The notes under the pieces were generated by a model. The model made no database searches. It had not been told where the DNA came from and saw nothing but the letters and a program-made list of their open reading frames with translations. Of a stretch of 64,000 nucleotides of DNA, positions 5,846 through 24,475 are shown piece after piece. Position numbers and translations under genes: made by a program. The first letter of the stretch is position 1; every line of letters starts with the position of its first letter. This stretch comes from a virus (taxonomy: Duplodnaviria > Caudoviricetes): positions 10,107 through 74,106 of IMG/VR virus record IMGVR_UViG_3300014205_000212; one strand, written 5' to 3'.

Positions 5846-6001
5846 CCTGCCGTTTTAGATGAGATCATTGAATACATTGAAGATACTGAACAAACCATTG
5901 ATGGTGAATGGGGTTCGTGTAGAGACTTGAAAGAGTTGATTAGAGATAAACAAATGCCTGAATTATATGATAAGTTAATTGCTTTGAGAAATGGCAGGTA
6001 A
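5792..6001 (+). CDS. Cassette gene, hypothetical; starts inside the E8 loop
   Basis: ATG 5792 (MKAQDNKKEKATDVYTLLPAV) follows an A-rich tract; the stop is the TAA of TAAC 5999. Confidence 0.7.
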   Translation: MKAQDNKKEKATDVYTLLPAVLDEIIEYIEDTEQTIDGEWGSCRDLKELIRDKQMPELYDKLIALRNGR

Positions 6002-6035
6002 CTCACTTATATATACAGTTCAAAATATTGAAGTA
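5999..6035 (+). other. Array-terminal conserved site T1 (attI-like candidate)
   Basis: TAACtcacttatatatacagttcaaaatattgaagta is similar to the sites at 13048 and 24334; an imperfect inverted copy of the gttcaa...gaagt part lies at 6118-6134. Confidence 0.75.
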
Positions 6036-6286
6036 TGCCAAAACTAATAGAATCGGTAGATATAAAAAATAGAATAATAGAACTGATTAATAATAATAAT
6101 TTATTTATTAATGATGAACTTCAAATTTTTGAAGCACTTATTAATAAATATAAACCTATATCCATTTCTAATTGTTCTAATCTTTTAGGAAAAAAATATA
6201 ACTCTATAAAGTATATGGTTAACCATAATTCTTTACCTTTTATTTCTATTAATAATAGTAAACATATTTTAAAATCTTTAATATAA
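6035..6286 (+). CDS. Small helix-turn-helix protein (excisionase/MerR-like pattern)
   Basis: ISISNCSNLLGKKYNSIKYMVNHNSLPFISIN resembles the 'S.S.AA.LLG.S..T.Y.M...G.LP' HTH pattern; ATG overlaps the end of T1. Confidence 0.45.
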   Translation: MPKLIESVDIKNRIIELINNNNLFINDELQIFEALINKYKPISISNCSNLLGKKYNSIKYMVNHNSLPFISINNSKHILKSLI

Positions 6287-6290
6287 TTAT

Positions 6291-6752
6291 ATGGAAATTT
6301 TAAATTTAATTTTGATAGGAGTAATATCAAGTGGTATTACTCTTATGTATCAAAGAGGATTTTTTCCGGGAATGATATTTCATTCTTGGTTTAGATGGTT
6401 AATAATGACAAAGTATGAAATATTAGCTAAAATATTAGGCAAATGTCATTATTGTAATGGATTCTGGATAAATATTATTATAACCTTTTTATTTACTCAT
6501 AACTGGCTTTATTTCATCATAACTTCAGGTTCTTGGTATTTATGTACAGTTATCGTTTCTAATGTAATAGAATGTATTTATGTGCCAATAATATATAAAT
6601 CAGCCTTAGATTGGTGGAACAGTTTAAATATATTCGAAAAAAGTAATTTAACTGAAAAATATAAAATTAATGTTCCTGATAATGGATTAAAAGGAATAAA
6701 TCAATATATAATACAAGGAATAGCAAATAAAGAAAAAATATTAATAAAATAA
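6291..6752 (+). CDS. Membrane protein with CxxC motif (DUF1360-like)
   Basis: Hydrophobic segments flank LGKCHYCNGFW. Confidence 0.55.
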   Translation: MEILNLILIGVISSGITLMYQRGFFPGMIFHSWFRWLIMTKYEILAKILGKCHYCNGFWINIIITFLFTHNWLYFIITSGSWYLCTVIVSNVIECIYVPIIYKSALDWWNSLNIFEKSNLTEKYKINVPDNGLKGINQYIIQGIANKEKILIK

Positions 6753-6771
6753 TAATATAATTAATTTAATT

Positions 6772-7053
6772 ATGAATTACGAAGAATATTTACAAAAAGG
6801 GAAAGAACTCGAATCAGAATTTGAGAATAAGAAAACAGAATTAATGAAAGAATTTGTAAAGGCAAATAATCCTTATAAAATTGGTGACAAAATAACAGAC
6901 CATATTGGCTCAATAATTATTGAAAAAATGGGGTTTGCGTGGGGTTTCGGTAATAAGCCATGTGCCACATATACAGGTTTAGAACTTAAAAAAGATGGCA
7001 CTCCAACTAAAAAAGAATCACGTAGACAAGTGTGGCAGTCAAATATTGTCTAA
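6772..7053 (+). CDS. Hypothetical protein; stop coincides with the TAAC of E9
   Basis: 93-aa ORF with codon usage like the cassette genes. Confidence 0.75.
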   Translation: MNYEEYLQKGKELESEFENKKTELMKEFVKANNPYKIGDKITDHIGSIIIEKMGFAWGFGNKPCATYTGLELKKDGTPTKKESRRQVWQSNIV

Positions 7054-7062
7054 CATATGTTA
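7051..7062 (+). repeat. Collapsed attC-like site E9 (TAACatatGTTA)
   Basis: The two core boxes are only 4 nt apart; the downstream box GTTACCGCCAG approximates the reverse complement of ATGGACGGTAAC (7697-7708). Confidence 0.6.
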
Positions 7063-7101
7063 CCGCCAGTTTTTATTTATTAATCTTAATATCAAAACTA
7101 T

Positions 7102-7707
7102 ATGAAATCATGGAAAGAACCTACAAAAGAAAGATGGGGAATGGATTATCGTCCCGGAATTACAGAAGAATTTTCACAACTAATTAAATTAGCTAAAGAA
7201 AAGATTGAGCCATTTTCATATAAAGAAATTTCAAGATATACTTATTACTTTAAAGTAAAAGGTGAGGAAATTTCGAGTGAATTTGATTGCTGCGATGATG
7301 AAAAATGTATCAAAGAAGCCAAAAAAGCTATAAGAAAACAATACGGGAAAAATACGCATATTGAAGAATGTTATTCGGATAATGACGAAGACCATGAGAG
7401 TATTGAAATATGTAGTATTTGTGGAAAACCTATGAATGAATATCTTACTTGGTGTAATTCAGAATTAGAGTACTTAGAAGAAAATAAACCTTGGGACGCT
7501 CAATTTTTAGCTGATGAAGGTTTTGTAATTGGCGTTATTTTAGATAGTACTCCAACTATGGATTGTAATATTTCAGATTATGCAAAATATCAAAAAGGCG
7601 AAACACTTCAAAAGGCATTACAATCAAGAGAAGAATTTTTTCAAAGAATCGGTAAATTAGCTCAATCAGTAATTGATGCAGACTTCGCTGTCTTAAATGG
7701 ACGGTAA
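7102..7707 (+). CDS. Cassette gene, hypothetical (CxxC-containing)
   Basis: 201 aa with CSICG; the stop is the TAA of TAAC 7705. Confidence 0.8.
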   Translation: MKSWKEPTKERWGMDYRPGITEEFSQLIKLAKEKIEPFSYKEISRYTYYFKVKGEEISSEFDCCDDEKCIKEAKKAIRKQYGKNTHIEECYSDNDEDHESIEICSICGKPMNEYLTWCNSELEYLEENKPWDAQFLADEGFVIGVILDSTPTMDCNISDYAKYQKGETLQKALQSREEFFQRIGKLAQSVIDADFAVLNGR

Positions 7708-7828
7708 CGGTGAAGCTATGACCAGTAAAGGAATGCGGGCTTCGTGCCTGTCAAAATAGTAGAAACTTAATAGAAAATACAAAATGAAAATTAACGCAGA
7801 AACCCCCAATTGCATAAACATATTGTTA
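7705..7828 (+). repeat. attC-like site E10 (124 nt, hybrid arms)
   Basis: The left arm shares 22 identical nt with the E7 left arm; the right arm cccccaattgcataaacatattGTTA is of another type. Confidence 0.8.
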
Positions 7829-8254
7829 TATGCTGCTTTTTCTTCTATTCCATTAGATATTGAAGGTTCAAATTTAGAAAATACTGGTTGGATTCCTTCC
7901 GAAAATGATAAAAAGTATATGGATGGAAAAAACTATTTACTTGCTATTGAAGAAGCTAATTCCAAAAATGCTAAAGTAATATTTAAAAATGTATCTCTAC
8001 AATGGGATAGTTGTGATTGCGGAGATTATTATGGTTGTTCGCATGGGAATTATGTTTATGATATTGACATAATAAATGAAAATAAAAAAATTAACATAGA
8101 ATATACCGATGGAGATTCTCTGGAATTTTATAACAATGGGAAGTCCTGTAAGATTCCAACAGCAGGAGCAACTATTTTTGATTTTATAAGAATGTGTCAA
8201 ATTTGTGAAATTGAATTAGAGCTAACAGATTACGCAGAAACTCTTTTAAAGTAG
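7784..8254 (+). CDS. Cassette gene, hypothetical; starts inside E10
   Basis: TPNCINILLYAA is encoded by the right arm and box; closing box GTAGCATATAAT (8251-8262). Confidence 0.8.
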   Translation: MKINAETPNCINILLYAAFSSIPLDIEGSNLENTGWIPSENDKKYMDGKNYLLAIEEANSKNAKVIFKNVSLQWDSCDCGDYYGCSHGNYVYDIDIINENKKINIEYTDGDSLEFYNNGKSCKIPTAGATIFDFIRMCQICEIELELTDYAETLLK

Positions 8255-8258
8255 CATA

Positions 8259-8280
8259 TAATTTATTTATATGTGCATAA
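8259..8280 (+). other. Degenerate array-terminal site T2
   Basis: TAATttatttatatgtgcata resembles TAACtcgtttatatgtatag of T3. Confidence 0.4.
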
Positions 8281-8292
8281 AAAGTAATACTT

Positions 8293-8493
8293 TTGCATAC
8301 TAATCAATTGAAATATAGACTATTAAATAAAAGCATTAAATTAAGTAAAAACGAGTTGCATTACTTATATATTTTGAAATTTAAATACAAAATGAAAGTT
8401 AATCAATTTATCCGTGATGCTATCATCGAAAAATTAAAAAAAGATGTTCCAGTAATAAGAATAAATTTTAATAAAGAATATGAACCATTCTAA
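8293..8493 (+). CDS. Small ribbon-helix-helix-like DNA-binding protein (start uncertain, TTG)
   Basis: KSIKLSKNELHYLYILKFKYKMKVNQFIRDAIIEKL fits a strand-helix-helix pattern. Confidence 0.4.
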   Translation: MHTNQLKYRLLNKSIKLSKNELHYLYILKFKYKMKVNQFIRDAIIEKLKKDVPVIRINFNKEYEPF

Positions 8494-8503
8494 CTTATAC
8501 TAA

Positions 8504-8893
8504 ATGATAATAAAGATATGTTTAATAATATTATTTATTATGTGTAGTCTTTCTATTACTCATAATATGATAGTGTCTATTTATCCTGTTTATTTAAGTT
8601 TTAATGTTACTGTAACTATATATAATGCAGAATCAAATCAATGTGATGATACACCTCTTATTACAGCTTCTAATGATAAAATAAATGAAAATTCTATAAA
8701 TTGGATAGCTTTATCTAGAGATTTAAAAAAAAATTGTAGATTTGATGATACAATAGAACTATTTATAAATGGTAGGTATAAAAAATATATAGTTAAAGAC
8801 TTAATGAATAAGAGATGGACAAATAGAGTTGACATCTTAATTCATACTAAAAAACACTTTAAAGTAACTTCAGTTTTATATATAAAATTATAA
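8504..8893 (+). CDS. 3D-domain/RlpA-like double-psi barrel protein with N-terminal signal anchor (putative cell-wall enzyme)
   Basis: VTVTIYN..QCDDTPLITAS, WIALSRDL, YIVKDLM...RVDIL; hydrophobic N-terminus. Confidence 0.7.
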   Translation: MIIKICLIILFIMCSLSITHNMIVSIYPVYLSFNVTVTIYNAESNQCDDTPLITASNDKINENSINWIALSRDLKKNCRFDDTIELFINGRYKKYIVKDLMNKRWTNRVDILIHTKKHFKVTSVLYIKL

Positions 8894-8895
8894 TT

Positions 8896-8991
8896 ATGGA
8901 AACGTGGAAGATAATAACAATAATAATAGTAGTATCTATTATCTTTATTTTATGCTTTATGAAAGGTAAAAAAAGAGATGAAGAAGATTGA
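8896..8991 (+). CDS. 31-aa single-TM peptide (not in ORF track)
   Basis: METWKIITIIIVVSIIFILCFMKGKKRDEED*. Confidence 0.5.
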   Translation: METWKIITIIIVVSIIFILCFMKGKKRDEED

Positions 8992-8992
8992 T

Positions 8993-9070
8993 ATGATAAT
9001 AACTTTATTTTTTTTAATAATATGTCTAATTATATTAGGCTTATATGCTAATGGAATATTAATAAATTAA
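8993..9070 (+). CDS. 25-aa hydrophobic peptide (not in ORF track)
   Basis: MIITLFFLIICLIILGLYANGILIN*. Confidence 0.4.
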   Translation: MIITLFFLIICLIILGLYANGILIN

Positions 9071-9074
9071 AATT

Positions 9075-9275
9075 ATGGCATTAAATAAAATTACGACAAA
9101 ACCATCTAAACATAAGTTTTTTTATGTTGTTTTTAATATAAATGGAGATGTTATTGGAATAGCAGATTCTTTTGGTAAAGGATTATCTATTTATGAACAA
9201 CGGTATAATAATACACCTTCAGATTCTAGAAATAATATAATACCTTTTGAAATAAATAAATTTTATTATAAATAA
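9075..9275 (+). CDS. Hypothetical protein
   Basis: 66-aa ORF. Confidence 0.6.
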   Translation: MALNKITTKPSKHKFFYVVFNINGDVIGIADSFGKGLSIYEQRYNNTPSDSRNNIIPFEINKFYYK

Positions 9276-9280
9276 TAATT

Positions 9281-9430
9281 ATGGTAATTAAATTATTAGG
9301 AATATTATTTGTTATTATTTCTATATATATGATAAGTATTAGAATAAATTATAATGATTGGTTTGATACAATAGGATGGGTGTGTTCTTTTTTTTGGTGT
9401 GTTAATTCTACATTTTTACATAAATCTTAA
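9281..9430 (+). CDS. 49-aa two-TM peptide (not in ORF track)
   Basis: MVIKLLGILFVIISIYMISIRINYNDWFDTIGWVCSFFWCVNSTFLHKS*. Confidence 0.5.
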   Translation: MVIKLLGILFVIISIYMISIRINYNDWFDTIGWVCSFFWCVNSTFLHKS

Positions 9431-9737
9431 AACAATGAATTTTAATAGCTCAATTAGATGTATTTTACAAAAAGATAAAATAACACATCCTTTATTTCCT
9501 AAAGAAATAAAATATATATATTTAAATAACAATAATTTAGTTAATTCTTTAGGAGAACAAATTAATATTAGTGATTATATATTTAATGATGATAATTATC
9601 ATATATATTATTCTGAAATACTAACTAAAGAAGATGAAATATTATTAGTAGCAGTATTTTGGGAATTATTTCGAATAAATTCTAAATATATAGATAAATA
9701 TACTAATTTAATTGATAAATTAAGAATTAAAAATTAA
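9399..9737 (+). CDS. Hypothetical protein (true start probably the downstream ATG, MNFNSS)
   Basis: ORF track. Confidence 0.6.
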   Translation: MLILHFYINLKTMNFNSSIRCILQKDKITHPLFPKEIKYIYLNNNNLVNSLGEQINISDYIFNDDNYHIYYSEILTKEDEILLVAVFWELFRINSKYIDKYTNLIDKLRIKN

Positions 9738-9741
9738 AATT

Positions 9742-9954
9742 ATGGTAACAGGAATATTAGATGAAGACTATCTCAATGAAGAGAGATTAAAGGATCACAT
9801 TAAAGAATTAGAAGAATATGATAAGATAAGAGAGGAAAGAAATAATGCTTTAGAATTATATTGTGTAGAATGTGATAAATATATTCCAAAAGAAAAAGTT
9901 ATATGGAGAAATGATACTCCTTATTGTGAATGTGGTAATATATTAGAATTATGA
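9742..9954 (+). CDS. Zinc-ribbon protein
   Basis: CVEC...YCECG. Confidence 0.6.
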   Translation: MVTGILDEDYLNEERLKDHIKELEEYDKIREERNNALELYCVECDKYIPKEKVIWRNDTPYCECGNILEL

Positions 9955-10358
9955 TAGAAGAAGAAGCATTAGAAGAAATAATAAAGTTAGCAAATGGTAC
10001 ATCAGACCCTGCTACAATAAAGGCTTATTATAAACAACAATTCTTTAATGGAAAGAAGATGCTATTTGATGGTACTATCATTACAGCACTACTTATATTA
10101 GAAAAATACAAGGCTTACACAGATTATTGGGATTCTTCATTTGGAAATAAAAATCCTCAATATATAAAATCTGTAGATAAAAAAATGTCTATTTCTGATT
10201 TCTTAGTAAAAGGAGAATATAATAAAACATTTATTCTTCCGGCAAGAAATAGAGATATATATCTATTTGGTACTAATAGTCTTAATGAACTTAAAGTAAA
10301 ATTAATTAATTTTAATAAAAGACTTAATGAAAGAAAGAACACTTCCCGAGGGAACTAA
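9951..10358 (+). CDS. Hypothetical protein upstream of the helicase
   Basis: 135 aa, overlaps both neighbours. Confidence 0.65.
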   Translation: MIEEEALEEIIKLANGTSDPATIKAYYKQQFFNGKKMLFDGTIITALLILEKYKAYTDYWDSSFGNKNPQYIKSVDKKMSISDFLVKGEYNKTFILPARNRDIYLFGTNSLNELKVKLINFNKRLNERKNTSRGN

Positions 10359-11709
10359 AATACCACCTCATGATTTAAGAATAGAAGAAACTATATTAGG
10401 TCAGTTAATGATAGAAGTAAATAAAAATACTATTAATGCTATTAGCATCATTAATGAAGATGATTTTTATAAAGAATCACATAAATTAATTTATAGAACA
10501 ATATCTTTATTATATAAACGAGATAATGTTTGTAATTTCATTATTGTATGTCATGAATTAATGAAGATTCAAGCATTAGAAATAGTAGGTGGTAGTTATA
10601 TTATAAGTACTTTATCTTCTAATGTATCTTCTACTTTAAATGTTATTTATCATGCAAGAATTCTTAAACAGTTATCAATTGCTAGAAAATTAATTGCTAT
10701 TTCATATAATGTTCAAACTTCTGTATATGAAATGAAAGATGTAAAAGAGATAATAGATACTTTAAATAAAGACATTAATAATATCTATAAAGATGTTGAT
10801 AAAGAAGATTCTATTGTCTTAGCTTCTAAAGTATCTGATGAATTAATGAAAGATTTATTAAATGATAATTTTGTATTAAATAAAAAGAATACAGGATTTA
10901 AAATTTTAGATAAAATAATTGGTATTACATTAAATAAAATATTATTAGTTGCTGGTCCTGCAAAACATGGGAAAAGTAAGTTTATAAGTATGATAATGAT
11001 GAATATTTTAGAAAAATATTCTGATGTAAGTATATTTTGGATTACATTAGAAGATTCTGCTAAAGATATCATTGCCGGTTATATTGCTTCTAAAATTTTA
11101 ATTACTCCTAAAGACATCATTGAAAGAACATATTCTAAAGACTGTAATTCTATTATTAAACCTCATATAGAGAAGTTTAAAACCTTTGATATAGAATTCC
11201 AAGAAAAAAGTGCTAAAGTGTCTCAATTTGGCATTAAATTCATTGAATTCTGTAAAATGCGAAAAGGAAGATTTAATATTTTAATAATTGATAATATGCT
11301 TTCATTATCTGATAAAGATGATTTTAAAGGTAATGATAATGGAATGTATGATTATATTATGCTTCAGTTATTAAATATTAAACAAAGGACTAATGCTTTA
11401 ATAATTCCTATTCATCATTATAGAGATGCTCAACAAGCAGAAGGAAAGATAGAAAGTGCATATAGACCAAGATTAATAGACATGAAAGGAACAGAAGCTT
11501 TTAGAAGAGTTCCTAATCAAGTATTACTATTAAATAATCCGGGAAAATATAAAGATTTAGTTATAGAATATAAAGGTCATAAAGACTTACTAAAGAGTAT
11601 CTTTATATGTGATACTGGTGCTAATAGGAATGCTTCCGATGATGATGATAGTGCTTTAATAAGATTCTTTCACACACTAGAATTTAATATTTTTGAAGAA
11701 ATAAATTAA
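10327..11709 (+). CDS. dnaB: Replicative DNA helicase, DnaB family
   Basis: N-terminal PPHDLRIEETILG, Walker A AGPAKHGKS, LIIDN Walker B region. Confidence 0.92.
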   Translation: MKERTLPEGTKIPPHDLRIEETILGQLMIEVNKNTINAISIINEDDFYKESHKLIYRTISLLYKRDNVCNFIIVCHELMKIQALEIVGGSYIISTLSSNVSSTLNVIYHARILKQLSIARKLIAISYNVQTSVYEMKDVKEIIDTLNKDINNIYKDVDKEDSIVLASKVSDELMKDLLNDNFVLNKKNTGFKILDKIIGITLNKILLVAGPAKHGKSKFISMIMMNILEKYSDVSIFWITLEDSAKDIIAGYIASKILITPKDIIERTYSKDCNSIIKPHIEKFKTFDIEFQEKSAKVSQFGIKFIEFCKMRKGRFNILIIDNMLSLSDKDDFKGNDNGMYDYIMLQLLNIKQRTNALIIPIHHYRDAQQAEGKIESAYRPRLIDMKGTEAFRRVPNQVLLLNNPGKYKDLVIEYKGHKDLLKSIFICDTGANRNASDDDDSALIRFFHTLEFNIFEEIN

Positions 11710-11733
11710 CGGTGAGCGTATGAAATCGTGTTA
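11707..11733 (+). repeat. Collapsed attC-like site E11
   Basis: TAACggtgagcgTATGaaatcgtGTTA; its TAA is the DnaB stop codon. Confidence 0.75.
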
Positions 11734-11776
11734 GTTGCAGCCTTTTATTTAGTAATTAATTTTTAAAAACAAAAAT

Positions 11777-12124
11777 ATGAAAGTAACATTAAACATTGAA
11801 AACGATGCCGAAATGAGAGCATACGTTAAAGATTGCATTAAAGGACAAGTATTGTCAATTGTTCGTGAAGAAATGCAAGAAATGATTAAAGAAGAGTTGA
11901 ACCGAAAAATAAAAGGGTTGAACGATTCCAATTTTCAGCGGATATTTACAGATGCGATGGTGAAGAATGTAAAAGACATTTTACAAGCAAATCACAATGT
12001 GAAAAGCTGGGATAATAATTGGATTAAACCTATTATAGCTTCTTTAATGGAGCAATATGTAAAGCAAAACGAATCGTTAATTAATCAACTTGCAAAAGAG
12101 AAGGTTAAGTTGCTGGTTGGTTAG
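11777..12124 (+). CDS. Cassette gene, hypothetical
   Basis: Between GTTAGTTGCAGCC (11730) and GGTTGCAACTAAC (12124-12136). Confidence 0.8.
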   Translation: MKVTLNIENDAEMRAYVKDCIKGQVLSIVREEMQEMIKEELNRKIKGLNDSNFQRIFTDAMVKNVKDILQANHNVKSWDNNWIKPIIASLMEQYVKQNESLINQLAKEKVKLLVG

Positions 12125-12132
12125 GTTGCAAC

Positions 12133-12338
12133 TAACGGCTGCGGGTGTGACATCGGTTTTTTTGCGGATTAACAACTAAAATTTAAAAATATGGTACAGA
12201 TAGTAGAACAGACAAAGGAAGAAAAAATGGCAATGTATATGAAATTGTCTAAGAAGCAAATAGCAGAAATGCTTATTAATTGCAATAACATTATAACAGC
12301 ACTAACGCAAGCAAAAAACTGTGTTATACCTGCTGTTA
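12133..12338 (+). repeat. attC-like hairpin site E12 (206 nt, long loop containing a gene start)
   Basis: TAACggct-gcgggtgtgacatcggtttttttgc pairs with gcaaaaaactgtgttatacctgc-tGTTA. Confidence 0.88.
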
Positions 12339-12436
12339 TGGGTGAGTTAACTTGCGATAGTTGCGGTTGCCATCCAAATACAATATATCAAACAAGCAAG
12401 GGTCGGTTTTGTGAACGGTGCAATCCAGCAAGTTAA
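12191..12436 (+). CDS. Cassette gene with C-terminal CxxC...CxxC; starts inside E12
   Basis: CVIPAVMGE is encoded by the right arm; CDSC...CERC. Confidence 0.7.
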   Translation: MVQIVEQTKEEKMAMYMKLSKKQIAEMLINCNNIITALTQAKNCVIPAVMGELTCDSCGCHPNTIYQTSKGRFCERCNPAS

Positions 12437-12443
12437 TTACCCA

Positions 12444-12565
12444 TAATGGCTGCGGGTTTGAAATGTAAGGGATTTCAGAACGCTTCCGTATCACACGAGA
12501 TAAATTAACTTAGTAGTAACCAGCTTTACAACAGATAAAACCCTTATATTTTAAACCCGTTGTTA
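12444..12565 (+). repeat. attC-like hairpin site E13 (122 nt, TAAT variant)
   Basis: TAATggctg-cgggtttgaaatgtaaggg pairs with cccttatattttaaacccg-ttGTTA. Confidence 0.88.
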
Positions 12566-12583
12566 GGCACAGTACGGTAAATT

Positions 12584-12748
12584 ATGATACAATATAAAAC
12601 GAAGCAATTAATTCAAGTTCCTTGTAAAAATAAACTTACAGGTAGCATTGAAACATTTGAGATAATGGCTTATGATTTTTCAGATGCTAAAAAGGAACTT
12701 GAATGGGTTTTAGATTTACGATGGATAATTGGTTATGGTTCAATGTAG
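12584..12748 (+). CDS. 54-aa cassette gene (not in ORF track)
   Basis: MIQYKTKQLIQVPCKNKLTGSIETFEIMAYDFSDAKKELEWVLDLRWIIGYGSM*; it fills the space between matched boxes at 12562 and 12748-12761. Confidence 0.7.
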   Translation: MIQYKTKQLIQVPCKNKLTGSIETFEIMAYDFSDAKKELEWVLDLRWIIGYGSM

Positions 12749-12757
12749 TATTGTGCC

Positions 12758-12882
12758 TAACGGTTCGTGTATGACCCGTTTGGGATTAAATAGTACAAAC
12801 TTTCAAAATGGAACAAATGAATATAAATGACTTAGACTTTCAGCAAACTACCGAACCCCAAATGGGTTATGACACGGTGTTA
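12758..12882 (+). repeat. attC-like hairpin site E14 (125 nt)
   Basis: TAACggtt-cgtgtatgacccgtttggg pairs with cccaaatgggttatGacacg-gtGTTA, leaving one extrahelical G on the right arm. Confidence 0.92.
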
Positions 12883-13050
12883 TCGGCAGGTATTTGTGAT
12901 ACTTGTTCTATTCCTAAAATGATGAATACAGGCGATGGTATAAATGAACCATCTGACCCTATTCTTTATTGTCATAAAATGAAACGTGAAATATGTCCAG
13001 AACCACCAGAGGATAGGATGGTCGAATGTCGGTTTTATACTTGCCGATAA
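12808..13050 (+). CDS. Cys-rich cassette gene; starts inside E14
   Basis: PQMGYDTVLSAG is encoded by the right arm; the stop is the TAA of TAAC 13048. Confidence 0.7.
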   Translation: MEQMNINDLDFQQTTEPQMGYDTVLSAGICDTCSIPKMMNTGDGINEPSDPILYCHKMKREICPEPPEDRMVECRFYTCR

Positions 13051-13153
13051 CTCGTTTATATGTATAGTTCAAAAAAATGAAGTAGTCTATATATTAAATA
13101 GTTATATGTTTTATTGTATTCATTTTATATAATTATACTTCAATTTATTGAAA
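13048..13153 (+). other. Array-terminal conserved site T3 with downstream imperfect inverted repeat
   Basis: TAACtcgtttatatgtatagttcaaaaaaatgaagta; inverted copy tacttcaatttattgaaa at 13136-13153. Confidence 0.75.
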
Positions 13154-13196
13154 TAATAGTAAATTAATAAATAATAGTAAACTAATAAATAATAAA

Positions 13197-13565
13197 ATGA
13201 AATATAAAGATTATGAAGGATTTACAAAAACATATGTTATTGTTTATGTAACAGGAACAGGATGTATGGAAGATAATTTTATTGACCATGATGTTGTTTT
13301 TGAAACAGACAACAAAGATGAAGCAGAATCAAAAGCAAATGAGTTAAAAATACACAATAACTCACCTGCTGATATAGAATCAACCTGGTATAGAAATAGA
13401 TACCATGTAAATATTAATACACTTTCAGAAATGGGTAAAAAATTACTTGAAGAGTTTCGAAATGATTTTAATAAAACATTACAAAAAGGTTTAAAAGAAG
13501 GTATATATGATAAAGTTGAAGTTGACGATATAACTTTTTATATGGATAATAGACGTAAATTTTAA
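13197..13565 (+). CDS. Hypothetical protein
   Basis: 122-aa ORF. Confidence 0.75.
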   Translation: MKYKDYEGFTKTYVIVYVTGTGCMEDNFIDHDVVFETDNKDEAESKANELKIHNNSPADIESTWYRNRYHVNINTLSEMGKKLLEEFRNDFNKTLQKGLKEGIYDKVEVDDITFYMDNRRKF

Positions 13566-13583
13566 TAACTAATAAATAATAAT

Positions 13584-15026: not shown

Positions 15027-15050
15027 TTATTAACTTAAATAAATTAAATT

Positions 15051-15707: not shown

Positions 15708-15718
15708 ATAAATAAATT

Positions 15719-16000
15719 ATGAATTTTGATAACAGTTCAGCTCGCGAAGTGGCTATAGAATGTGCAATTACATTTGCTAAACATAAGAAGTTAACACCTT
15801 CATTAGATGATATAATAAAAATAGCAGAAGTAGTATTTGTAAAGTGGATTAATCCACAATCTATAAAAGATTATAATATGCATAGAAATGCTGCATTAAA
15901 AAGAGCATTGATGCATTTAGATATCTCTAAAGAACCTATTGAATCAACTAAAGACATTTTAGTCTTAGCAGATAAATATTGGGAATATATAACTAAATAG
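15719..16000 (+). CDS. Hypothetical protein with an internal two-repeat pattern
   Basis: R.VA...A....DDIIKIAE and RNAALKRAL....DILVLAD. Confidence 0.65.
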   Translation: MNFDNSSAREVAIECAITFAKHKKLTPSLDDIIKIAEVVFVKWINPQSIKDYNMHRNAALKRALMHLDISKEPIESTKDILVLADKYWEYITK

Positions 16001-16002
16001 AT

Positions 16003-17064: not shown

Positions 17065-17081
17065 TTAAATAAATAAAAATT

Positions 17082-17912
17082 ATGTGTACAAGAGTATTAG
17101 AGTTTAAAGAGAAACAAGAAGTTATTACATTAGATGAATTAAAATTATCTGTAACAGCTAAAGCAGCAGGAGTAAAGAGACAAATAGAGCATTTTAATAT
17201 CTTTGATGATATATTAGAAAAATGTGTTAAACAAAATTATAATACATTAGTTAGTCCTATTTATGTTGCAGGAGGTGTATCTGCAAAAAAGATTCCTGCA
17301 TTAGAACCTCACGTTGGAGTAAATAATATTCAAGCTTGGTATTTAGATAAAATAACAGGAACAATAACCTTTCCTTCATTTAATAATGAACTTACAACTT
17401 GTAAAATTAATATTGAACATAGTGATAGAGGTTTATCTATTGCATTTGGTAAAGTTGTTTTGATCTGCAGTAATGGAATGACTGCATTTAGAAGTGATAT
17501 AGTAACTACATATGGTGAAGGTAAGTTAAACTATAATCAATGTTTAGAACTTGTAGAAAAATGGTTATATGAACTTCCAGAGAAAAACGAACAATATGAT
17601 AATCTAATTACACAAATGATTAATAGACCTATCATTAAAGAAGCAATACCTGAACTTATAGGTAAGTTAGAACTTAAAGCTGTAGAACAAGCATATTGTA
17701 AAGGTGATGAAGCTCCATTTAATATTTCTCAAGTATCTAATTTCTCTAAAAATATTATCACATCTTATAAAGAAGAAAAACCTATTACTAATGTTTGGGA
17801 ATTATATAATGCAGGAACATTAATTCAAAAACCAAACTTAATGGATATTAGTACTATAAATAATACTAACTTCCTTCTTACAGATTTCTTTATGAAAGAA
17901 TATTTAAATTAA
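17082..17912 (+). CDS. DUF932-like protein
   Basis: LSIAFGKVVLICSNGM and terminal NVWELYNAGT motifs. Confidence 0.55.
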   Translation: MCTRVLEFKEKQEVITLDELKLSVTAKAAGVKRQIEHFNIFDDILEKCVKQNYNTLVSPIYVAGGVSAKKIPALEPHVGVNNIQAWYLDKITGTITFPSFNNELTTCKINIEHSDRGLSIAFGKVVLICSNGMTAFRSDIVTTYGEGKLNYNQCLELVEKWLYELPEKNEQYDNLITQMINRPIIKEAIPELIGKLELKAVEQAYCKGDEAPFNISQVSNFSKNIITSYKEEKPITNVWELYNAGTLIQKPNLMDISTINNTNFLLTDFFMKEYLN

Positions 17913-17925
17913 GTTATTTAACTTT

Positions 17926-17960
17926 TAGAGGAATATCTTTAATAAGGTATTCCTCTATTT
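17926..17960 (+). terminator. Stem-loop after the recombination cluster (terminator or processing site)
   Basis: tagaggaatatctt-taat-aaggtattcctcta followed by ttt. Confidence 0.55.
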
Positions 17961-17974
17961 AATAAATTAAAATT

Positions 17975-19312
17975 ATGCCTACAAGTATATTCATAGAAAG
18001 TTTAACTAAAAGAAATATTTTAGTTAAAAACGGTAGAGAAGATTTAATATTTCATGTTGGTTCAAGTTCTAAAAATACACATAAATTTATTTCTATATCT
18101 ATTAAAGAAAAAATAATTGGAAACAATAAACATTTCTATTTTTATTTAGATGGAATATTAAAAAAAGAATCAGTTTGGGAATGTAAAAATAATAGAGCAA
18201 CAATTCATATAATAGATATAAATCATGTATAAAAGATTTGCAATAATTGACGATTATGGAACAATACATTCTAGTACCGAAGAAGAAATGAGATTAGCAA
18301 TTACTGCCATGACAGATTCTGATTCTTTAGTAGGCACTAAAAGTGATATATTAAAATTAAAAGCTAAATATTATTCTCCTTGGGTTGGAGATTTAAAATT
18401 AGTAGAAATTCATAAATTATATAAATAATGAAAAAAAGAATAACTAAAGAAGATAATAATACATTAGATAATGTAGAAAAGCCACTTTGGAAAGATATAG
18501 ATGGGAAACCTGTATTGCCTATGAATCATAAAAAGATTTGTGCTAATGCTACTTGGGATTACATTATTGTCTATTTTGATCTTAAAAAATCTCCTGAAGT
18601 ATTTAATATTTCTAAACCTAAAAATAAATGAAAACATTTTATTATACAAGAAATCAAAAAGAAGGACATAGTGGATATATAGTTACATTAGAAATTTATA
18701 AAATAGAGAAAAAAATACCATATCATTTATGTTCTCACACTTTTAATACTGCATCTACAAGAGGAGAAGAATCAGAAGTATTTAATGGATTAGCAAAAAA
18801 TGGTTTTCTTCCAAAGAAATATCAAGATAAGTATGCTAGAGAAATTCCACATAAAGCTTATAGATTATGAAATATTACAATAATAAAGGAGCATTAGTAG
18901 ATAGTCATAATGGAGATGCATTATTTATATTAATAGAATTAGAAAATAATTCTTTTATGTCAGTAGAATATAGTTCTGAAGATTATCCTTCGACAACAAT
19001 ATTATTCTATAAAAATTTAAAAGAAGTAAAAGAATCATTAAAAAATAATCCGGAATGGATATTAAATGGTATTAAAAATATAAAATTAAAGAAATGGTTA
19101 AAATCAATCCAGTAGAAGTTGCAAGTGTATTAGCTACAAATGCAACTTTTGATGAAGTAAAAGTTAATCCTGCAAATAATGTACAGGAAGAAGATGATAT
19201 GTATGAAGAAATAAGTAAAAATGAATATAGATTTAAAGGTATTTTTCAAAATATATTTAATATTCATTATGATTATTATTATAATATTTTAATTGCCCAT
19301 AATTATGAATAA
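17975..19312 (+). other. Run of six short hypothetical CDSs (17975-18232, 18225-18428, 18428-18631, 18628-18870, 18867-19115, 19094-19312)
   Basis: Overlapping start/stop coupling on the same strand. Confidence 0.65.
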
Positions 19313-19395
19313 TTCTAAATTTTAAATAGTAATTAATTGTATAGAATAAATATCTTATTTTAAAAGAATTGTTTGTTTAATTAAATAATTGTCAT

Positions 19396-20016
19396 ATGAA
19401 AATGTTAAAAGAAATAGCTGAAAATTATTCAGCACTAAATTACAACTCTGATAACTATTTTATAGGAGGAGGTTTAGATGGCTCAAAATTCGCTTCTAAT
19501 CGGCACGAGGATGCACGTAATGATTCAGGAAAGCTTACACTTGGGGAATTAACTGCACTTCTCAAGAAGGTCACAAAAATAGACATAGATGTTATAAAGT
19601 CTGTAATTAATTACGCAGTGCCTAACATGGAATGGCATCATGCCGGGAAATTGCCAAAACAATACGGTGGAGGCATGAAGAAGACATATTTTTTAAATGC
19701 AAAAGAAATTTGTGATATTGCAACTAATTTCGAAGATTATAAAAATAAAGTTGAAATTGCAATTGTTACTAAAAAGGCTGAGGCAGAGGCACAAAATACA
19801 TTAGTCCAACGTCAATTAGACTACCTTAAAGGAAATGCCACTAAATTTAGCAGAGTGTCAAATTTACCTCAATTTTACACAATTACTGAAAGCGAAATGA
19901 ACGGTAAATATGGGTGGTTTGATGCTTCCGGAAAGTCGTATAGTTTACCGATATATTACTCCGGTTGGGAATTTAAAAATCAAGAAGATTTAAATAACTA
20001 TCACTTAATTCGTTAA
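19396..20016 (+). CDS. Hypothetical protein with foreign-looking codon usage
   Basis: 206 aa; more C/G-ending and CGN codons than its neighbours; EWHHAG motif. Confidence 0.8.
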   Translation: MKMLKEIAENYSALNYNSDNYFIGGGLDGSKFASNRHEDARNDSGKLTLGELTALLKKVTKIDIDVIKSVINYAVPNMEWHHAGKLPKQYGGGMKKTYFLNAKEICDIATNFEDYKNKVEIAIVTKKAEAEAQNTLVQRQLDYLKGNATKFSRVSNLPQFYTITESEMNGKYGWFDASGKSYSLPIYYSGWEFKNQEDLNNYHLIR

Positions 20017-20177
20017 TATGAAAGTTACTGTGACTTATATCAAAGTAATCAAGAAAGTTATAAAAGCGAAAGACAACGCAGAACTTTTAATACTTATTGA
20101 TGAAAAGTGCCCTAAAGGTTATATTTTACAAAAATTTTAATTTTATAATTTAGTAATAATTTTTAAAACGAAATAAA

Positions 20178-20618
20178 ATGAAAAATACTATTGATAAATT
20201 AAAATTGAAAAAATATCATTCTAAAATAATAAAAGCTAAAATAATAACTAGTAAAAATGCATACGATTATATTAGACAGTTTTACTTTGATGATATAGAT
20301 ATTTATGAAAGTGTTTTTATATTACTCATAGATGCCTCTAATACAACAATAGGATATGCTAAAATAAGTCAAGGAGGAGTTATAGGAACAGTTATAGATG
20401 TTAAGTTAATATGTAAATATGTTATAGATAGTTTAGCGATGGGAGTTATATTAGCTCATAACCATCCTACAGGTAACCTTAAAGCAAGTGATTCTGATAT
20501 GCAAATAACATCTAAAGTAAAAGATGCTTTAAATATCTTTGATTGTAAATTATTAGATCATATTATACTTAGTTCTAATAAATATTTATCCATGGCAGAT
20601 GAAGGAATTTTAATTTAA
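20178..20618 (+). CDS. radC: RadC-like JAB/MPN domain protein
   Basis: E...SQGG...VILAHNHPTGNLKASDSD...LLDHIIL. Confidence 0.92.
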   Translation: MKNTIDKLKLKKYHSKIIKAKIITSKNAYDYIRQFYFDDIDIYESVFILLIDASNTTIGYAKISQGGVIGTVIDVKLICKYVIDSLAMGVILAHNHPTGNLKASDSDMQITSKVKDALNIFDCKLLDHIILSSNKYLSMADEGILI

Positions 20619-20624
20619 AATATT

Positions 20625-21287
20625 ATGAAAAATAAATATGTTTATTATATAATGGAAACTGATATATGGCAATCAAATTATTCAGAAACTCTATTTGGTA
20701 TTTATGATGATTATGATATAACTTTTAAAGAGTTTAATAAATTATCAGAATTTTATAATAAAGAAAATATTAATGGAGATATTATTATGTATTATACTAT
20801 TATAAATCAAAAACATGAATCTATAAAAATTATGTCTAAATCTGGTAATTAATGAATAAAGAAGAAAAAGAATTATTTATAAATAATTTTATAAATAGTA
20901 TAAAAGAAGATTTATTATCTAAATTAGATTCTATTCCTGAAAATTGGGATGGATTTGAATTAAGACATTATATTAATATTAAATTCGAACAAGAAAATTT
21001 ATGGAAAAGAAAAATATTAAGTAATACAGATAAAATAAGAAAACAAAGATGTCTTAATGATATTTATAATAATGGGTTGTAGTGTATTAAATTGGAGTAG
21101 GGAGTTACATAATAAAAAAGTAACTCCTGACCGTAATGATGGTAAAATAACAGTTAAAATACCAAATGGATATATCACATTTTCCACTGAAGAAGAAAAA
21201 CAAGATTGGCTTAAAAGATATTTAAATAAACAAATTGTTGAAAATAAACCTTTAAAATTTAATCGTTATAAAAAAAGAAATAAATGA
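20625..21287 (+). other. Three short hypothetical CDSs (20625-20852, 20852-21082, 21057-21287)
   Basis: Coupled ORFs on the + strand. Confidence 0.6.
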
Positions 21288-21709
21288 AAGCAGAAGAATA
21301 TAAAGACATTTTAAATCATTATATGTATCGTTTTAAATTAGAACATACAGATGAATATCATAATTATATAAAATTAAAATATTTCTATACAAAAAATTCA
21401 GAAATTACAGTAGATAATATTATAAAACTTGTATGTGAAGGAGAGAAAGTAGATATAGAAGATATGAAAAGAACCGGAAGAAATAGAAATTTAAATATTC
21501 AACCTAGACAAATAGCTTCTTATCTTATTACTAAACACATTAAAGGACTTACATTAGAATCAATAGGTAAAGCTTTAAGAAATGAACCTTTAGATCATGC
21601 AACAGTTATTCATGCTAATAAAACTATTAATAATCTTATAGATACAGATAAGAGAATGAAAAATAAATTAATTCATTATGAAGACATCATTAAAGCTTGG
21701 AAAGAATGA
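21284..21709 (+). CDS. Stand-alone DnaA C-terminal (domain IV) HTH protein
   Basis: PRQIASYL...TLESIG...DHATVIHA matches the DnaA domain IV signature. Confidence 0.85.
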   Translation: MKAEEYKDILNHYMYRFKLEHTDEYHNYIKLKYFYTKNSEITVDNIIKLVCEGEKVDIEDMKRTGRNRNLNIQPRQIASYLITKHIKGLTLESIGKALRNEPLDHATVIHANKTINNLIDTDKRMKNKLIHYEDIIKAWKE

Positions 21710-22362
21710 CAGAGATAGAAAAGTTCTTTAAAGATACATATGTTAGAAATACACCTATAATAGAATATCTAAGAGAAGCTACAAGAAATAAATTAGCATA
21801 TTTTATTCCTCTTAATACACCATCATTAAAAAATAGTAAACAGATACAACAGATATTTACTAAGAATTCTACTTGCTGTCATTCTAGAGGTGGATTGGTT
21901 ATTAAAACATCTACAGGAGGATTAATTTGTTCTCATTGTCAACAACCTTGTGGAAGACATACAAGACCTATTTTAAATGCTTCAGATGGCGTACAGGAAT
22001 ATGAAAAAAATATATTACCTTTTGTAAATGTCTTTAAAGGTATATTTAAAGAATGGAAAGTAGGAAAGACAGAACCTTTAGTTATGTGTTTTTATTTTAT
22101 AAGAAACCAATATAGAGATTTTGATTATGGAAACGCTTCTGAGGTACTTTTAGATATGTTTAAAGACCAAACTGATAAGAAGACTAAAGAAGTTATACCG
22201 AGATTAATTACTGATGATTGTATGCGTTTTGTAAAACCTTTCTTTCTAGGTTGTCATTATTCACAAGATAAACCTGGTACTATCATTACTTTACTTACAA
22301 AAGAACTACTTGAAATATATAGTAAAGTATATTTAGATTATAAACCTAATACATTATTCTAA
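21697..22362 (+). CDS. RusA-like Holliday junction resolvase with a Cys-rich insertion
   Basis: TPSLKNSKQ N-motif; FIRNQYRDFDYGN and LITDD acidic motifs; insertion CCH...CSHCQQPC. Confidence 0.55.
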   Translation: MERMTEIEKFFKDTYVRNTPIIEYLREATRNKLAYFIPLNTPSLKNSKQIQQIFTKNSTCCHSRGGLVIKTSTGGLICSHCQQPCGRHTRPILNASDGVQEYEKNILPFVNVFKGIFKEWKVGKTEPLVMCFYFIRNQYRDFDYGNASEVLLDMFKDQTDKKTKEVIPRLITDDCMRFVKPFFLGCHYSQDKPGTIITLLTKELLEIYSKVYLDYKPNTLF

Positions 22363-23119
22363 TGAAAACATATAAACCAATAACTAAAAAAATAATAATA
22401 GATATATTAACCGATGTAGAACATTATAATCAAAGTCCATTAAATTTAATAATTAATGGATATAATATTGATGAAAATATCACTTGTAGAAAAATATGTG
22501 TTAAAAAAGGTAGAATAGAATATTTCTATTATAAAGATTCTCCTGAAAGTATGGAAAGATTTAAAATGTTACTTAACCAAATATTAAATAGAAATGAAAA
22601 AAGTAAGTATAGTAATAGTATCAAGAATGTATAATGTAATACATGAAGATGATTTATCTGAAACAGGAATATTAAGATTAGCAGAAAACAACTTTGATAA
22701 TGAAATTAACCTATTAACTTCTAATTTAGAAGATGGTGATTTTGCTTATGAAATAAAAAGTACTAACGATTATAAAGTTTGATATGGAACAGTCATTTAT
22801 AGAAAAAAGAATTGCAAGTAAAGCAACTGAAAGAGTAGATAAAGATTATAGAGAATTTATAGATTTTTGTAATAAAAATCCTTTTGCTAAACAAATACAA
22901 ATTAAAGTAAATAATATAAATATTTTTTTAACTGGTAATAATTATAATAATCAAGAATTATTTTCTCCTCATAATACAAATAATAAAAATAATGATTTTA
23001 CCAACTATATAGATATATTCAATAAGCTTCAAAAAAAATATGAAAAAGAAGAAACAGAAATTTTACTTGATAAATTAGATAGTGTAAAATATTTATTTGA
23101 TAACTTAAATAACATATAA
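22362..23119 (+). other. Three short hypothetical CDSs (22362-22634, 22594-22782, 22784-23119)
   Basis: Coupled ORFs on the + strand. Confidence 0.6.
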
Positions 23120-23124
23120 TTAAT

Positions 23125-23490
23125 ATGCAAAAACATACAGAAATATATTTAAATCATTTTCATCTTCATCAAGGAGAAGTTATAGTAAGTGAGATATCCG
23201 GAACTACCAATGGTATAAACATTCATCATTTAGATTCTAAAAAGATGGGTGGTAGTGATACTAAAGATTATATAGAGAATCTATGTGCTATTACCATTAC
23301 AGAACATGAGTTATGCCATAGATATAAAGAATATAATGAATATGTAAAGAAGATACATGAATTATTCTTAACTATTAATCCTTATTCTTATCCTCATCTC
23401 TTTCTTGATAATACAATTTATAAAAAATATCAAAAAGATTTATATCAGATACTTAAAGAATGTGGACATTATAAAAAATATAGTAAATGA
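23125..23490 (+). CDS. HNH-family nuclease-like protein
   Basis: IHHLDSKKMGGS...ENLCAITITEHELCH. Confidence 0.7.
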   Translation: MQKHTEIYLNHFHLHQGEVIVSEISGTTNGINIHHLDSKKMGGSDTKDYIENLCAITITEHELCHRYKEYNEYVKKIHELFLTINPYSYPHLFLDNTIYKKYQKDLYQILKECGHYKKYSK

Positions 23491-23505
23491 ATATAGATAA
23501 TAATG

Positions 23506-23633
23506 TAACGGCTGGCGGTATGCGGTCGTTGCCGAACTATCAAATTAGTAATAACTTAAATACGAGAACAAAATTATGAATACAGAAAAAAGTATCAACG
23601 AAGCGGAAGGCAATGCCGTATTACCGCTTGTTA
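23506..23633 (+). repeat. attC-like hairpin site E15 (128 nt)
   Basis: TAACggctg-gcggtatgcggtcgttgcc pairs with ggcaatgccgtattaccgc-ttGTTA, with single-base bulges. Confidence 0.9.
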
Positions 23634-23944
23634 CCACCCGTTTTTTATTGCTCAGTCTGAAATGGACTAACAAAAAAGATAAGTGGTTTACGTTTTGGCG
23701 TGAAAATTCAGCAGGGTATTGCTGGTTCAAAGAATGGTGTGGACTTTATGATATTGAAAAAGCAAGAGAAACGCACGGACACGACAATACTATTATGGTT
23801 GATGGATTCCTTATTAAACACCTTTGGAAAGAAATTGAATACGAAGGTAAAAAACGTGAAATACTTCCAAATACGGAAGAGGTGCGTAAATTTTTATCTA
23901 TTCAACTTCGAGATTTAAAAGCATTGCACCGCACTACTCATTAA
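23576..23944 (+). CDS. Cassette gene, hypothetical; starts inside E15
   Basis: GNAVLPLVTTR is encoded by the right arm and box; closing box ATGGGTGGTAAC (23945-23956). Confidence 0.8.
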   Translation: MNTEKSINEAEGNAVLPLVTTRFLLLSLKWTNKKDKWFTFWRENSAGYCWFKEWCGLYDIEKARETHGHDNTIMVDGFLIKHLWKEIEYEGKKREILPNTEEVRKFLSIQLRDLKALHRTTH

Positions 23945-23952
23945 ATGGGTGG

Positions 23953-24042
23953 TAACGTTTTGCGTATATACGAGGTACGCCTTAACGATGAATTTTAAAT
24001 TACAACAAACGCTTATAGGCGTATCTTGTATATACGCTGTTA
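23953..24042 (+). repeat. attC-like hairpin site E16 (90 nt)
   Basis: TAACgtttt-gcgtatatacgaggtacgcc pairs with ggcgtatcttgtatatacgc-tGTTA. Confidence 0.92.
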
Positions 24043-24057
24043 GCACCAGTACGGATT

Positions 24058-24324
24058 ATGAGAACTGAACTAAATTTATATGATGACAAATTAAAACAAG
24101 CAATACTTGATTTGCCATACAATACAAAGATTGATGATAATGGTGTTGATTGCGATATGGTTTTCATCCCTGAAAGTGATTATGGATTTGCTGAAATATA
24201 CAGAATGTACGATGATATTTTAGTTTTTTTAATCCCAACTTACGGAGGAACACCATCATTGCAATATCACGTTAGTAGACACGCTATTGATTATCTGATT
24301 TCTGAATTGAAAAAGATAACGTAG
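24058..24324 (+). CDS. Cassette gene, hypothetical
   Basis: Between GTTAGCACCAGTAC (24039) and GTATTGGTGCTAAC (24324-24337). Confidence 0.8.
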   Translation: MRTELNLYDDKLKQAILDLPYNTKIDDNGVDCDMVFIPESDYGFAEIYRMYDDILVFLIPTYGGTPSLQYHVSRHAIDYLISELKKIT

Positions 24325-24333
24325 TATTGGTGC

Positions 24334-24450
24334 TAACTAGTTTATATATATAGTTCAAAAAAATGAAGTAATAGATTTATTAAGGCTTTCAACTTAGTTT
24401 TTATAATTATTTTTATACCTATTATATTTTATTACTTCATTTTTTTGAAC
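24334..24450 (+). other. Array-terminal conserved site T4 with a perfect 20-bp inverted repeat
   Basis: TAACtagtttatatatatagttcaaaaaaatgaagtaat; gttcaaaaaaatgaagtaat (24353-24372) is inverted at 24431-24450. Confidence 0.78.
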
Positions 24451-24475
24451 CTTTTAATAAAAATAAAAAAATTAA

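Follow-up and report, generated by a model that had tools for sequence, protein, structure and literature searches.

Candidate attI-type docking sites at the ends of cassette arrays in a tailed-phage genome

This work concerns a short sequence motif in the viral contig IMGVR_UViG_3300014205_000212 (Duplodnaviria; Caudoviricetes). The stretch analyzed (the window) comprises 64,000 nucleotides (nt) and is the right-hand 64 kb of this 74,106-nt contig. It contains four arrays of small gene cassettes with intervening hairpins, and each array is closed by a conserved sequence that does not form such a hairpin. We consider it likely, from sequence comparisons, that this terminal motif is an attI-type site, the non-hairpin, double-stranded partner of the attC-like cassette hairpins. 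An attI-like platform had been suggested in a first-pass annotation of the window, and this reading is supported by the arrangement at 14 of 14 array ends, by the breaks of homology at the site and by an equivalent site on the recombinase side of bacterial arrays. The whole would be best explained as an integron-like system of the Bacteroidota, with long arrays in Flavobacteriaceae and a layout like that of rAID-1 clusters (see below). For the exchange of accessory genes at several genomic loci, the phage probably relies on a borrowed recombinase.

The G+C content of the contig is ~25%. Positions 1-26,500 of the window carry small genes on the + strand, and the remainder carries large genes on the - strand. 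Inside the + strand block, there are islands with a G+C content of 31-42%. These consist of small open reading frames (ORFs) separated by imperfect hairpins, which open with ..TAAC and close with GTTA... The arrays formed in this way are dispersed and short, with 2 to ~8 cassettes:

1830..6002, + strand: array A, broken by three AT-rich ORFs at 2985-4040, ending at site i (matched R'/R'' flanks at 2305/2569, 2650/2856, 4557/4981, 5098/5725 and 5842/6002)
7055..8262, + strand: array B, two cassettes, from a minimal AAC-ATAT-GTTA site to site l
11711..13051, + strand: array C, four cassettes, from the stop codon of the DnaB gene to site q
23510..24337, + strand: array D, two cassettes, ending at site t

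The sites that close these arrays are the following:

5999..6035, + strand: terminal site i, the last TAAC of array A (5999-6002) plus platform 6003-6035
8259..8300, + strand: terminal site l, of a weak subtype, TAAT (8259-8262) plus a platform with a local palindrome around AAAAAGTAATAC
13048..13084, + strand: terminal site q, the last TAAC of array C (13048-13051) plus platform 13052-13084
24334..24370, + strand: terminal site t, the last TAAC of array D (24334-24337) plus platform 24338-24370

The three 37-mers reported earlier at the array ends are exactly in place, with a 33-nt motif directly after each TAAC. The weaker version, which follows the TAAT at 8259-8262, is real and represents a second subtype that is conserved in related phages. 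Sites q and t differ in one base over 30 nt, and site i has 3 deviating bases among the 22 positions of the core. For this 22-nt core, the window contains four matches (three direct and one inverted, at 24433-24454), while 0.01 would be expected from shuffled sequences, and it has no further match in the 74,106-nt contig. The motif is thus restricted to array ends and the inverted copy at site t. In a 68.6-kb relative, exact motif matches also occur at array ends only. The non-hairpin status claimed for the sites holds as well: when folded as single-stranded DNA, all four sites leave the TAAC unpaired and lack a GTTA partner, while 19 internal sites fold as hairpins. The G+C content falls from ~0.35 to 0.14-0.17 at the exact junction. 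A reading of the motif as a piece of a larger duplicated gene module was rejected, as the downstream genes of i, q and t are not paralogs.

Relatives were found via DnaB, via two small genes that follow the platforms and via one metagenome pattern scan; their sequences are short metagenomic contigs. This resulted in 14 terminal junctions: four from the window, two each from G001 (L015) and L070, and one each from L064, L011, L077, L079, L080 and L081. Several independent platforms per genome had been postulated, and the window phage has four and its relative G001 at least two. The terminal consensus is AAC-TNNYTTATAT. Counted from the base after AAC, there is a T at +1 (13/14), TAT at +6 to +8 (14/14), an A at +9 (13/14) and a T at +10 (11/14). 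The array itself ends in AAC in 13 of the 14 cases and in AAT in the remaining one, and the position of the junction agrees to the base in all 14, even though the 14 cassette flanks are all different. Internal junctions have a distinct signature. They start with a G at +1 (25/27 in phages, 93/119 in bacteria) and practically never have TAT at +6 to +8 (0/27 and 5/119, respectively).

Comparison of close relatives illustrates how the junction behaves. Starting at the TAAC and going right, L080 and L081 share 98.8% identity, but they are unrelated on the left; from that TAAC on, the identity of either one to L011 is 92.8%. Similarly, G001, L070 and L077 are ~95% identical to the right of the TAAC but have three different cassettes on the left; the match of L077 begins about a dozen bases before the TAAC, within the cassette end arm. 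The cassette next to the site was expected to be the most variable one, and close relatives indeed share the site and the downstream DNA but differ in the neighboring cassette. Because backbones that are 93-99% identical carry different adjacent cassettes, the terminal motif can be assigned to the backbone, with a junction that has been remade many times. The same is seen over larger distances: where the proteins of the flanking gene are only 36-59% identical, every orthologous platform is occupied, and the cassettes differ from one phage to the next. Arrays C (after DnaB) and D (after ORF 23125-23490) lack counterparts where synteny would place them in relatives; for array D, this was seen in L015.

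The position of the junction within the site can be read from one case. As the hairpins of one family are all alike, boundaries of homology blocks that lie between hairpins cannot tell a crossover at R' from one at R''. Only a cassette body that is shared by L011 and L081 makes the distinction. The copies are 98.6% identical and diverge within 4 nt after the AAC; L011 then has six further cassettes and L081 has one, before the same platform is reached. Thus, the hairpin moves with the downstream gene, and the junction lies directly after AAC and not at GTT.

Site i is orthologous to the occupied sites in L011, L079, L080 and L081, with the same gene of 83-88 amino acids (aa) downstream in all of them:

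6035..6286, + strand: gene for an 83-aa protein, directly 3' of site i and kept behind the same platform in relatives

The start codon of this gene overlaps the final base of site i, and no Pfam or PHROG family matched its product. The R'' flank at site i pairs with the R' of the same cassette at 5842. Site l is orthologous to site A of G001, site 2 of L070 and the site of L077, and a ribbon-helix-helix (RHH)-like gene is next in all of these. It is followed by a p129 homolog at site l and, as checked, in G001. L070 has a tandem duplication (100-440 and 640-895) of the platform, the RHH gene and the p129-like gene.

The cassettes themselves obey a simple rule. The bases 3' of a GTTA are the reverse complement of the bases 5' of the next TAAC (10-11 nt, with an outer G.T pair). 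Such end-matching flanks are the signature expected of circular cassettes recombining within a palindromic core. The + strand is more stable in 18 of the 19 phage hairpins (summed over all, -305 vs -243 kcal/mol). Roughly half of the cassette ORFs have their start codon in the loop of the hairpin, 5' of the GTT, and extend across the GTTA, so that only units from AAC to AAC leave the genes whole. In arrays A, B and C, the sites furthest to the left are degenerate or minimal, and those proximal to the terminal site are intact. The sample is small, and the degeneration fits with older cassettes being located far from the entry site. The G+C content of the cassettes along the arrays reveals no clear age gradient. 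For one cassette gene, which belongs to a mostly viral family, the closest relative at the nucleotide level is a gene from a Cellulophaga phage (67.7% nucleotide identity). This fits with a flavobacterial host and with a cassette pool common to phages. A naive scan for TAAC...GTTA pairs and a scan for matching 10-mer ends were both uninformative, with AT-rich background dominating the results.

In some hairpins, the 3' arm codes for the first 15-25 residues of the cassette protein (L015 3216-3329 and 4584-4698; window 2047-2068 and 23612-23633). The N-terminal peptides encoded in this way are conserved across otherwise unrelated cassette proteins (e.g., K-Q-Q-C-N-I..V-S and N-A-V-L-P).

The same hairpin family occurs in bacteria. 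A 19-base pattern was derived from one family of phage hairpins and searched in a collection of species-representative genomes. It was found at at least 79 loci, nearly all of them in Bacteroidota, while ~4 are expected by chance. The taxa include Aquimarina, Cellulophaga baltica, Tenacibaculum, Maribacter, Paludibacter, Rikenellaceae, Bacteroidales and others, among them many Flavobacteriaceae. Many of the bacterial loci are in long arrays, which obey the same end-matching rule as those of the phage. In Aquimarina sp. LLG6339-5 (G002, C1:127285-223699), one hairpin family extends over ~141-224 kb, beginning beside a recombinase gene at 127-128 kb. This suggests a chromosomal cassette array approaching 100 kb.

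Six array ends were read in five Flavobacteriaceae genomes (two of them in Cellulophaga baltica). At each of the six, the best or near-best match of the genome to the integron integrase model follows right after the last AAC. The recombinase gene is convergent with the phage-type + orientation, and the scan with the hairpin pattern placed arrays beside the recombinase gene in four of the five genomes. The six ends correspond to five distinct recombinase-side sequences, as two Aquimarina sites are identical. In all of them, the AAC is followed by N5-TATA and then by a palindrome. The arrangement AAC-N5-TATA is thus present in 5/5 distinct bacterial recombinase-side sites and in 13/14 phage sites. 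Over positions +1 to +11, site q matches the recombinase-side site of contig C34 from C. baltica in 10 of 11 bases.

The C. baltica recombinase matches PF00589 (3e-35) and scores 186 bits against TIGR02249, which is above its XerC/XerD scores. The array-side recombinases match TIGR02249 in two stretches (~3-181 and 240-315), and the 186 bits reached are below the cut-off of 265. From these matches, the array-side protein of C. baltica is predicted to be an IntI/Xer-like enzyme that is devoid of the IntI insertion.

Bacterial hairpins favor the phage-type folding strand in 24 of 31 cases, so that the strand polarity is shared. The orientation of the genes is, however, reversed. The ORFs are on the folding strand in the phage (18/19) but on the opposite strand in bacteria (44/48). 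In the bacterial layout, the recombinase gene is followed by the site and then by genes that read away from it. The phage has its site at the corresponding end of the array, with the genes directed towards it instead.

One of the two genes in the recombinase-nearest cassette of C. baltica B2M06 (L161 55-894, - strand) has a weak match to the AbiJ N-terminal domain (E 1.5e-4, which is below cut-off), so that the newest cassette might carry an anti-phage gene.

The following steps are proposed. The functional core would comprise the 11-nt arm of the last cassette (T-N6-TAAC) followed by N5-TATA. A free cassette would be a circularized hairpin plus its gene. Its + strand would fold and recombine with the site, with the crossover, and hence the cleavage, occurring at or beside the border between AA and C. 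The cassette would then land immediately to the left of the site, which, judged by gene direction, is the 3' end of the array. Such an entry at the transcriptional 3' end had been postulated earlier; it is supported, with a direction that we infer because the polarity of the site is conserved and the phage genes are flipped. The hairpin-internal start codons and the break between L011 and L081 directly after AAC point the same way. The site would serve for insertion and not only for excision or replacement. All four sites of the phage would be served by a recombinase supplied in trans. The host would be the simplest source of this enzyme, an unsequenced part of the phage being the other one.

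The wider picture falls, in our judgement, just short of probable. A lytic phage may carry, in its early-gene region, several copies of a host docking site without an integrase. Via the host recombinase, it would draw on a pool of flipped genes that circulates among phages. This would amount to a distributed, multi-platform integron that serves a virus.

Several points weigh against an attI-type function. Neither the 74-kb contig nor G001 codes for a tyrosine, serine or HUH recombinase (PF00589, PF00239, PF01797). An empty site, as had been proposed as a check, was looked for in the relatives and found in none of them. In the one-cassette array of L070, the flank at the left boundary is that of the cassette's own end, which the simple model does not predict. 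The platform types differ past ~+10: sites i, q and t form a first type, site l and sites A and B of G001 a second, and L064 a third, which leaves no more than ~10 nt after the AAC that all of them share. In two platform types, a start codon follows within 35 nt downstream, and much of the platform conservation could be that of a 5' untranslated region or an operator. Differences between phages could have been spread by homologous recombination among phages that were already different, without marking an active junction. The short metagenomic contigs could be mis-joined at shared sequence.

Three alternatives have to be weighed. The motif might be only a regulatory element of the phage (promoter, operator or 5' untranslated region), with insertions being tolerated just upstream of transcription units. 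This is consistent with the start codons that lie within ~35 nt of site i and of the A-type sites, and with the distal half, which is in part a palindrome (TTCA-N6-TGAA) and is repeated in inverted form further downstream. In addition, small and possibly DNA-binding genes follow two of the platform types, and the distal parts vary by platform type, as they do in gene-specific regulatory DNA. However, regulation does not account for a junction whose position is fixed to the base in 14 of 14 sites despite 14 different cassette flanks, nor for AAC-N5-TATA beside a bacterial recombinase gene, where no phage gene follows. Moreover, the genes 3' of sites i, q and t are unrelated to one another. A sigma-70-type scan discriminates poorly in this AT-rich DNA (183 matches vs 159 expected), and none was at the core among the matches listed. 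No -33/-7 Bacteroidota promoter motif was seen by eye at the site. A purely regulatory role is considered unlikely. We give the same low weight to the possibility that the sites are inert fossils, i.e. that the phage acquired pieces of bacterial arrays in one block, including the array end and a residual attI. Such a capture would be in line with the occurrence of the hairpin family and the terminal core in bacterial chromosomes, with phage contigs devoid of a recombinase, and with a cassette G+C content above that of the backbone. Simple copies of bacterial arrays would, however, not have their ORFs on the opposite strand (18/19 in the phage vs 44/48 in bacteria). Turnover also appears to be recent, given the different adjacent cassettes in 93-99% identical backbones, and the orthologous platforms at 36-59% flanking-protein identity are all filled with different cassettes. 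The cassette gene whose nearest relative is from a Cellulophaga phage, with its mostly viral family, likewise argues against fossils.

The third alternative is highly improbable. In this view, the cassettes would be non-autonomous transposons of the IS200/IS605 type, which move as single strands and insert 3' of TAAC, and the motif would be a favored target context. These elements would share the strand-specific folding, and each unit of the arrays does sit 3' of an AAC and end in AAC. But a Y1 transposase was not found, and the bacterial arrays are flanked by a tyrosine recombinase and not by an HUH enzyme. The cassette-specific, complementary 11-nt ends around GTT/AAC point instead to a crossover in a palindromic site of a tyrosine recombinase.

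With the attI-type reading, the phage sites can be compared to known systems. Like attI (e.g., attI1 of class 1 integrons), the phage site is devoid of a hairpin, is located at one fixed end of the array and is fused at the GTT/AAC triplet. The neighboring cassette is the variable one, and pairing with folded, single-stranded attC hairpins would also apply to the phage. The phage core is that of the cognate bacterial recombinase-side sites. On the - strand, the phage site has a short inverted pair around the presumed crossover, which we take to be comparable to the L and R boxes of attI1. There are also differences. The phage site has no adjacent integrase gene, whereas such a gene is present next to bacterial arrays with hairpins of this family. 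The phage genome has four copies of the site. The phage cassette genes point towards the site, so that no Pc-type promoter can serve them. The cognate bacterial enzymes differ from those of classical integrons, as they lack the IntI-specific insertion and score below the TIGR02249 cut-off.

Phages of the CTX type use XerCD to integrate at dif. In this case, a folded single-stranded hairpin and a double-stranded core undergo one strand exchange, and elements can stack at the reconstituted site. By eye only, the 11-nt arm of the phage, which ends in TAA, resembles a XerC arm. In the system described here, however, the phage genome is the recipient, and the guests are single-gene cassettes. The PeSL (promoter early stem-loop) cassettes of T4-type phages are thought to act by homologous recombination between repeats. 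We know of no cassette-specific complementary ends, GTT/AAC core or bacterial recombinase-linked counterpart for them. PeSLs are described as small accessory genes with conserved stem-loop and promoter motifs that are shuffled as modules (PMC2839356, PMC4122927).

The rAID-1 clusters of Bacteroidales have a XerD/IntI-like recombinase, followed by co-directional genes with repetitive integron-like intergenic sequences (Ross et al., bioRxiv 10.1101/471110). Judging by layout and hairpin repeats, the Flavobacteriaceae arrays are alike, and the phage hairpin family also occurs in Bacteroidales. The phage differs from this by having no recombinase, flipped genes, and short and dispersed arrays.

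An integron integrase can act in trans and insert cassettes into double-stranded sites outside an integron (attG), as described together with single attC sites and attC clusters without an integrase (SALIN and CALIN, respectively) (Loot et al., bioRxiv 10.1101/2022.09.11.507474). According to these authors, attI might have evolved from attG-like hot spots. The phage sites resemble attG in that cassettes would be inserted in trans outside an integron. However, attG sites are very many and have only GWT as a common element, while the phage sites have a longer core that matches cognate attI-type sites, are conserved at orthologous positions and carry multi-cassette arrays. With four arrays of hairpin sites and no recombinase found, the phage falls under the definition of a CALIN. 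Clusters of attC sites without an integrase have been reported in lytic phages, including a Polaribacter phage (Qi et al. 2023, PMC9892861). The attC sites of CALINs from virulent phages recombine with attI1 under IntI1. In the sections of that paper considered here, an attI-type site is described only for a Shewanella prophage (at its complete integron and at its CALIN) and none for the CALINs of virulent phages. The same sections make no mention of crAss-like phages, Bacteroidetes, Flavobacteria as such or a multi-platform layout.

Earlier publications cover attC clusters of virulent phages (PMC9892861), the insertion of cassettes into genomic sites by an integrase (10.1101/2022.09.11.507474) and rAID-1 (10.1101/471110). 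In the literature searched, we encountered no description of a defined docking-site core that is common to phage and bacterial arrays, of several integrase-less copies of it in one phage, or of signs of recent turnover at such copies. If the sites are active, a virulent phage would gain and lose accessory genes singly, precisely and at several loci, without encoding the enzyme, and would thus exploit an integron-like system of its Bacteroidota host. AAC-N5-TATA is a testable docking core for a family of recombinases with hardly any defined sites, which is common in gut Bacteroidales as well as in marine Flavobacteria. The comparison also suggests that the cassette pools of phage and host have recombination sites in common but are separated by gene orientation. 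This separation bears on the movement of defense and anti-defense genes between phage and host.

Outside sites i, q, t and their closest kin, neither the distal half of the 37-mer (GTTCAAAA..TGAAGTA) nor the inverted copy of this half is present. The inverted copy is evident at site t:

24431..24452, - strand: inverted copy of the distal half of site t, forming a 22-bp stem with 24351-24372 (loop of 56-58 nt)

Such a copy had been assumed for all three sites. It stands for site t, where the stem has z = -3.6, but not for the other two, where the partners are weak and not significant (~13136-13152 for q, z = -1.3; ~6116-6137 for i, z = -1.5). The partner for site i lies within ORF 6035-6286, at codons that are conserved in relatives. 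Only the first ~10 nt are common to all platform types. The distal half is more likely an add-on specific to this phage lineage, which would be regulatory rather than part of the core. The idea that the distal inverted repeats are the ends of a non-coding terminal cassette was dropped, as the other platform types are devoid of the repeat. A TTCAA..TTGAA-type palindrome inside the 83-88 aa gene is found at the same codons in three phages (window 6116-6137, L011 ~3070-3100, L079 ~540-560), and it resembles the distal half of the upstream platform. The two could be an operator pair for the product of this gene.

Exact and degenerate scans of IMG/VR, covering the 37-mer core and the second subtype, returned chance matches plus one relative, G001. 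A metagenome scan for the second subtype resulted in one additional relative (L077) and an unrelated family (L071, L072, L074, L076). The latter has TAGTGTATA..AAAAAAGTAATACT in an AT-rich upstream region, without AAC or cassettes, which is possibly a promoter of another organism.

The overall affiliation of the phage was also analyzed. No close relative was found among deposited phages by megablast of the structural region or tblastn of DnaB. PHROGs gave a name to only one virion protein, so that the label "crAss-like", which had been applied by the first readers, stays unverified. Scans for Rfam families and tRNAs were without matches. The window contains an ORF for 5,514 aa (35857-52401, - strand), the first 3000 aa of which have no tblastn match in 50,697 deposited phage genomes.

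Some further features are located outside the arrays. At G000 C1 ~6500-8500 (3.6-1.6 kb upstream of the window), there is a G+C-richer region, which is largely non-coding on the + strand and has C runs and several short inverted repeats. At 19396-20140, the window has a gene for 206 aa (G+C 0.34, with a local maximum of 0.40) and an ORF of 40 aa, with no hairpin sites around either of them. They look like an insertion of a different kind from the cassettes. A RadC-like gene (window 20178-20618, L015 8580-9026) directly follows DnaB in L015 but is located 9 kb further along in the window phage. An AT-rich leader (..TTTAGTAAT..TTTTAAAAAC..) is present at 5115-5150, 11747-11782 and 20148-20183. 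It precedes two cassette genes and the RadC-like backbone gene at 20178-20618, and could be a common promoter or translation leader.

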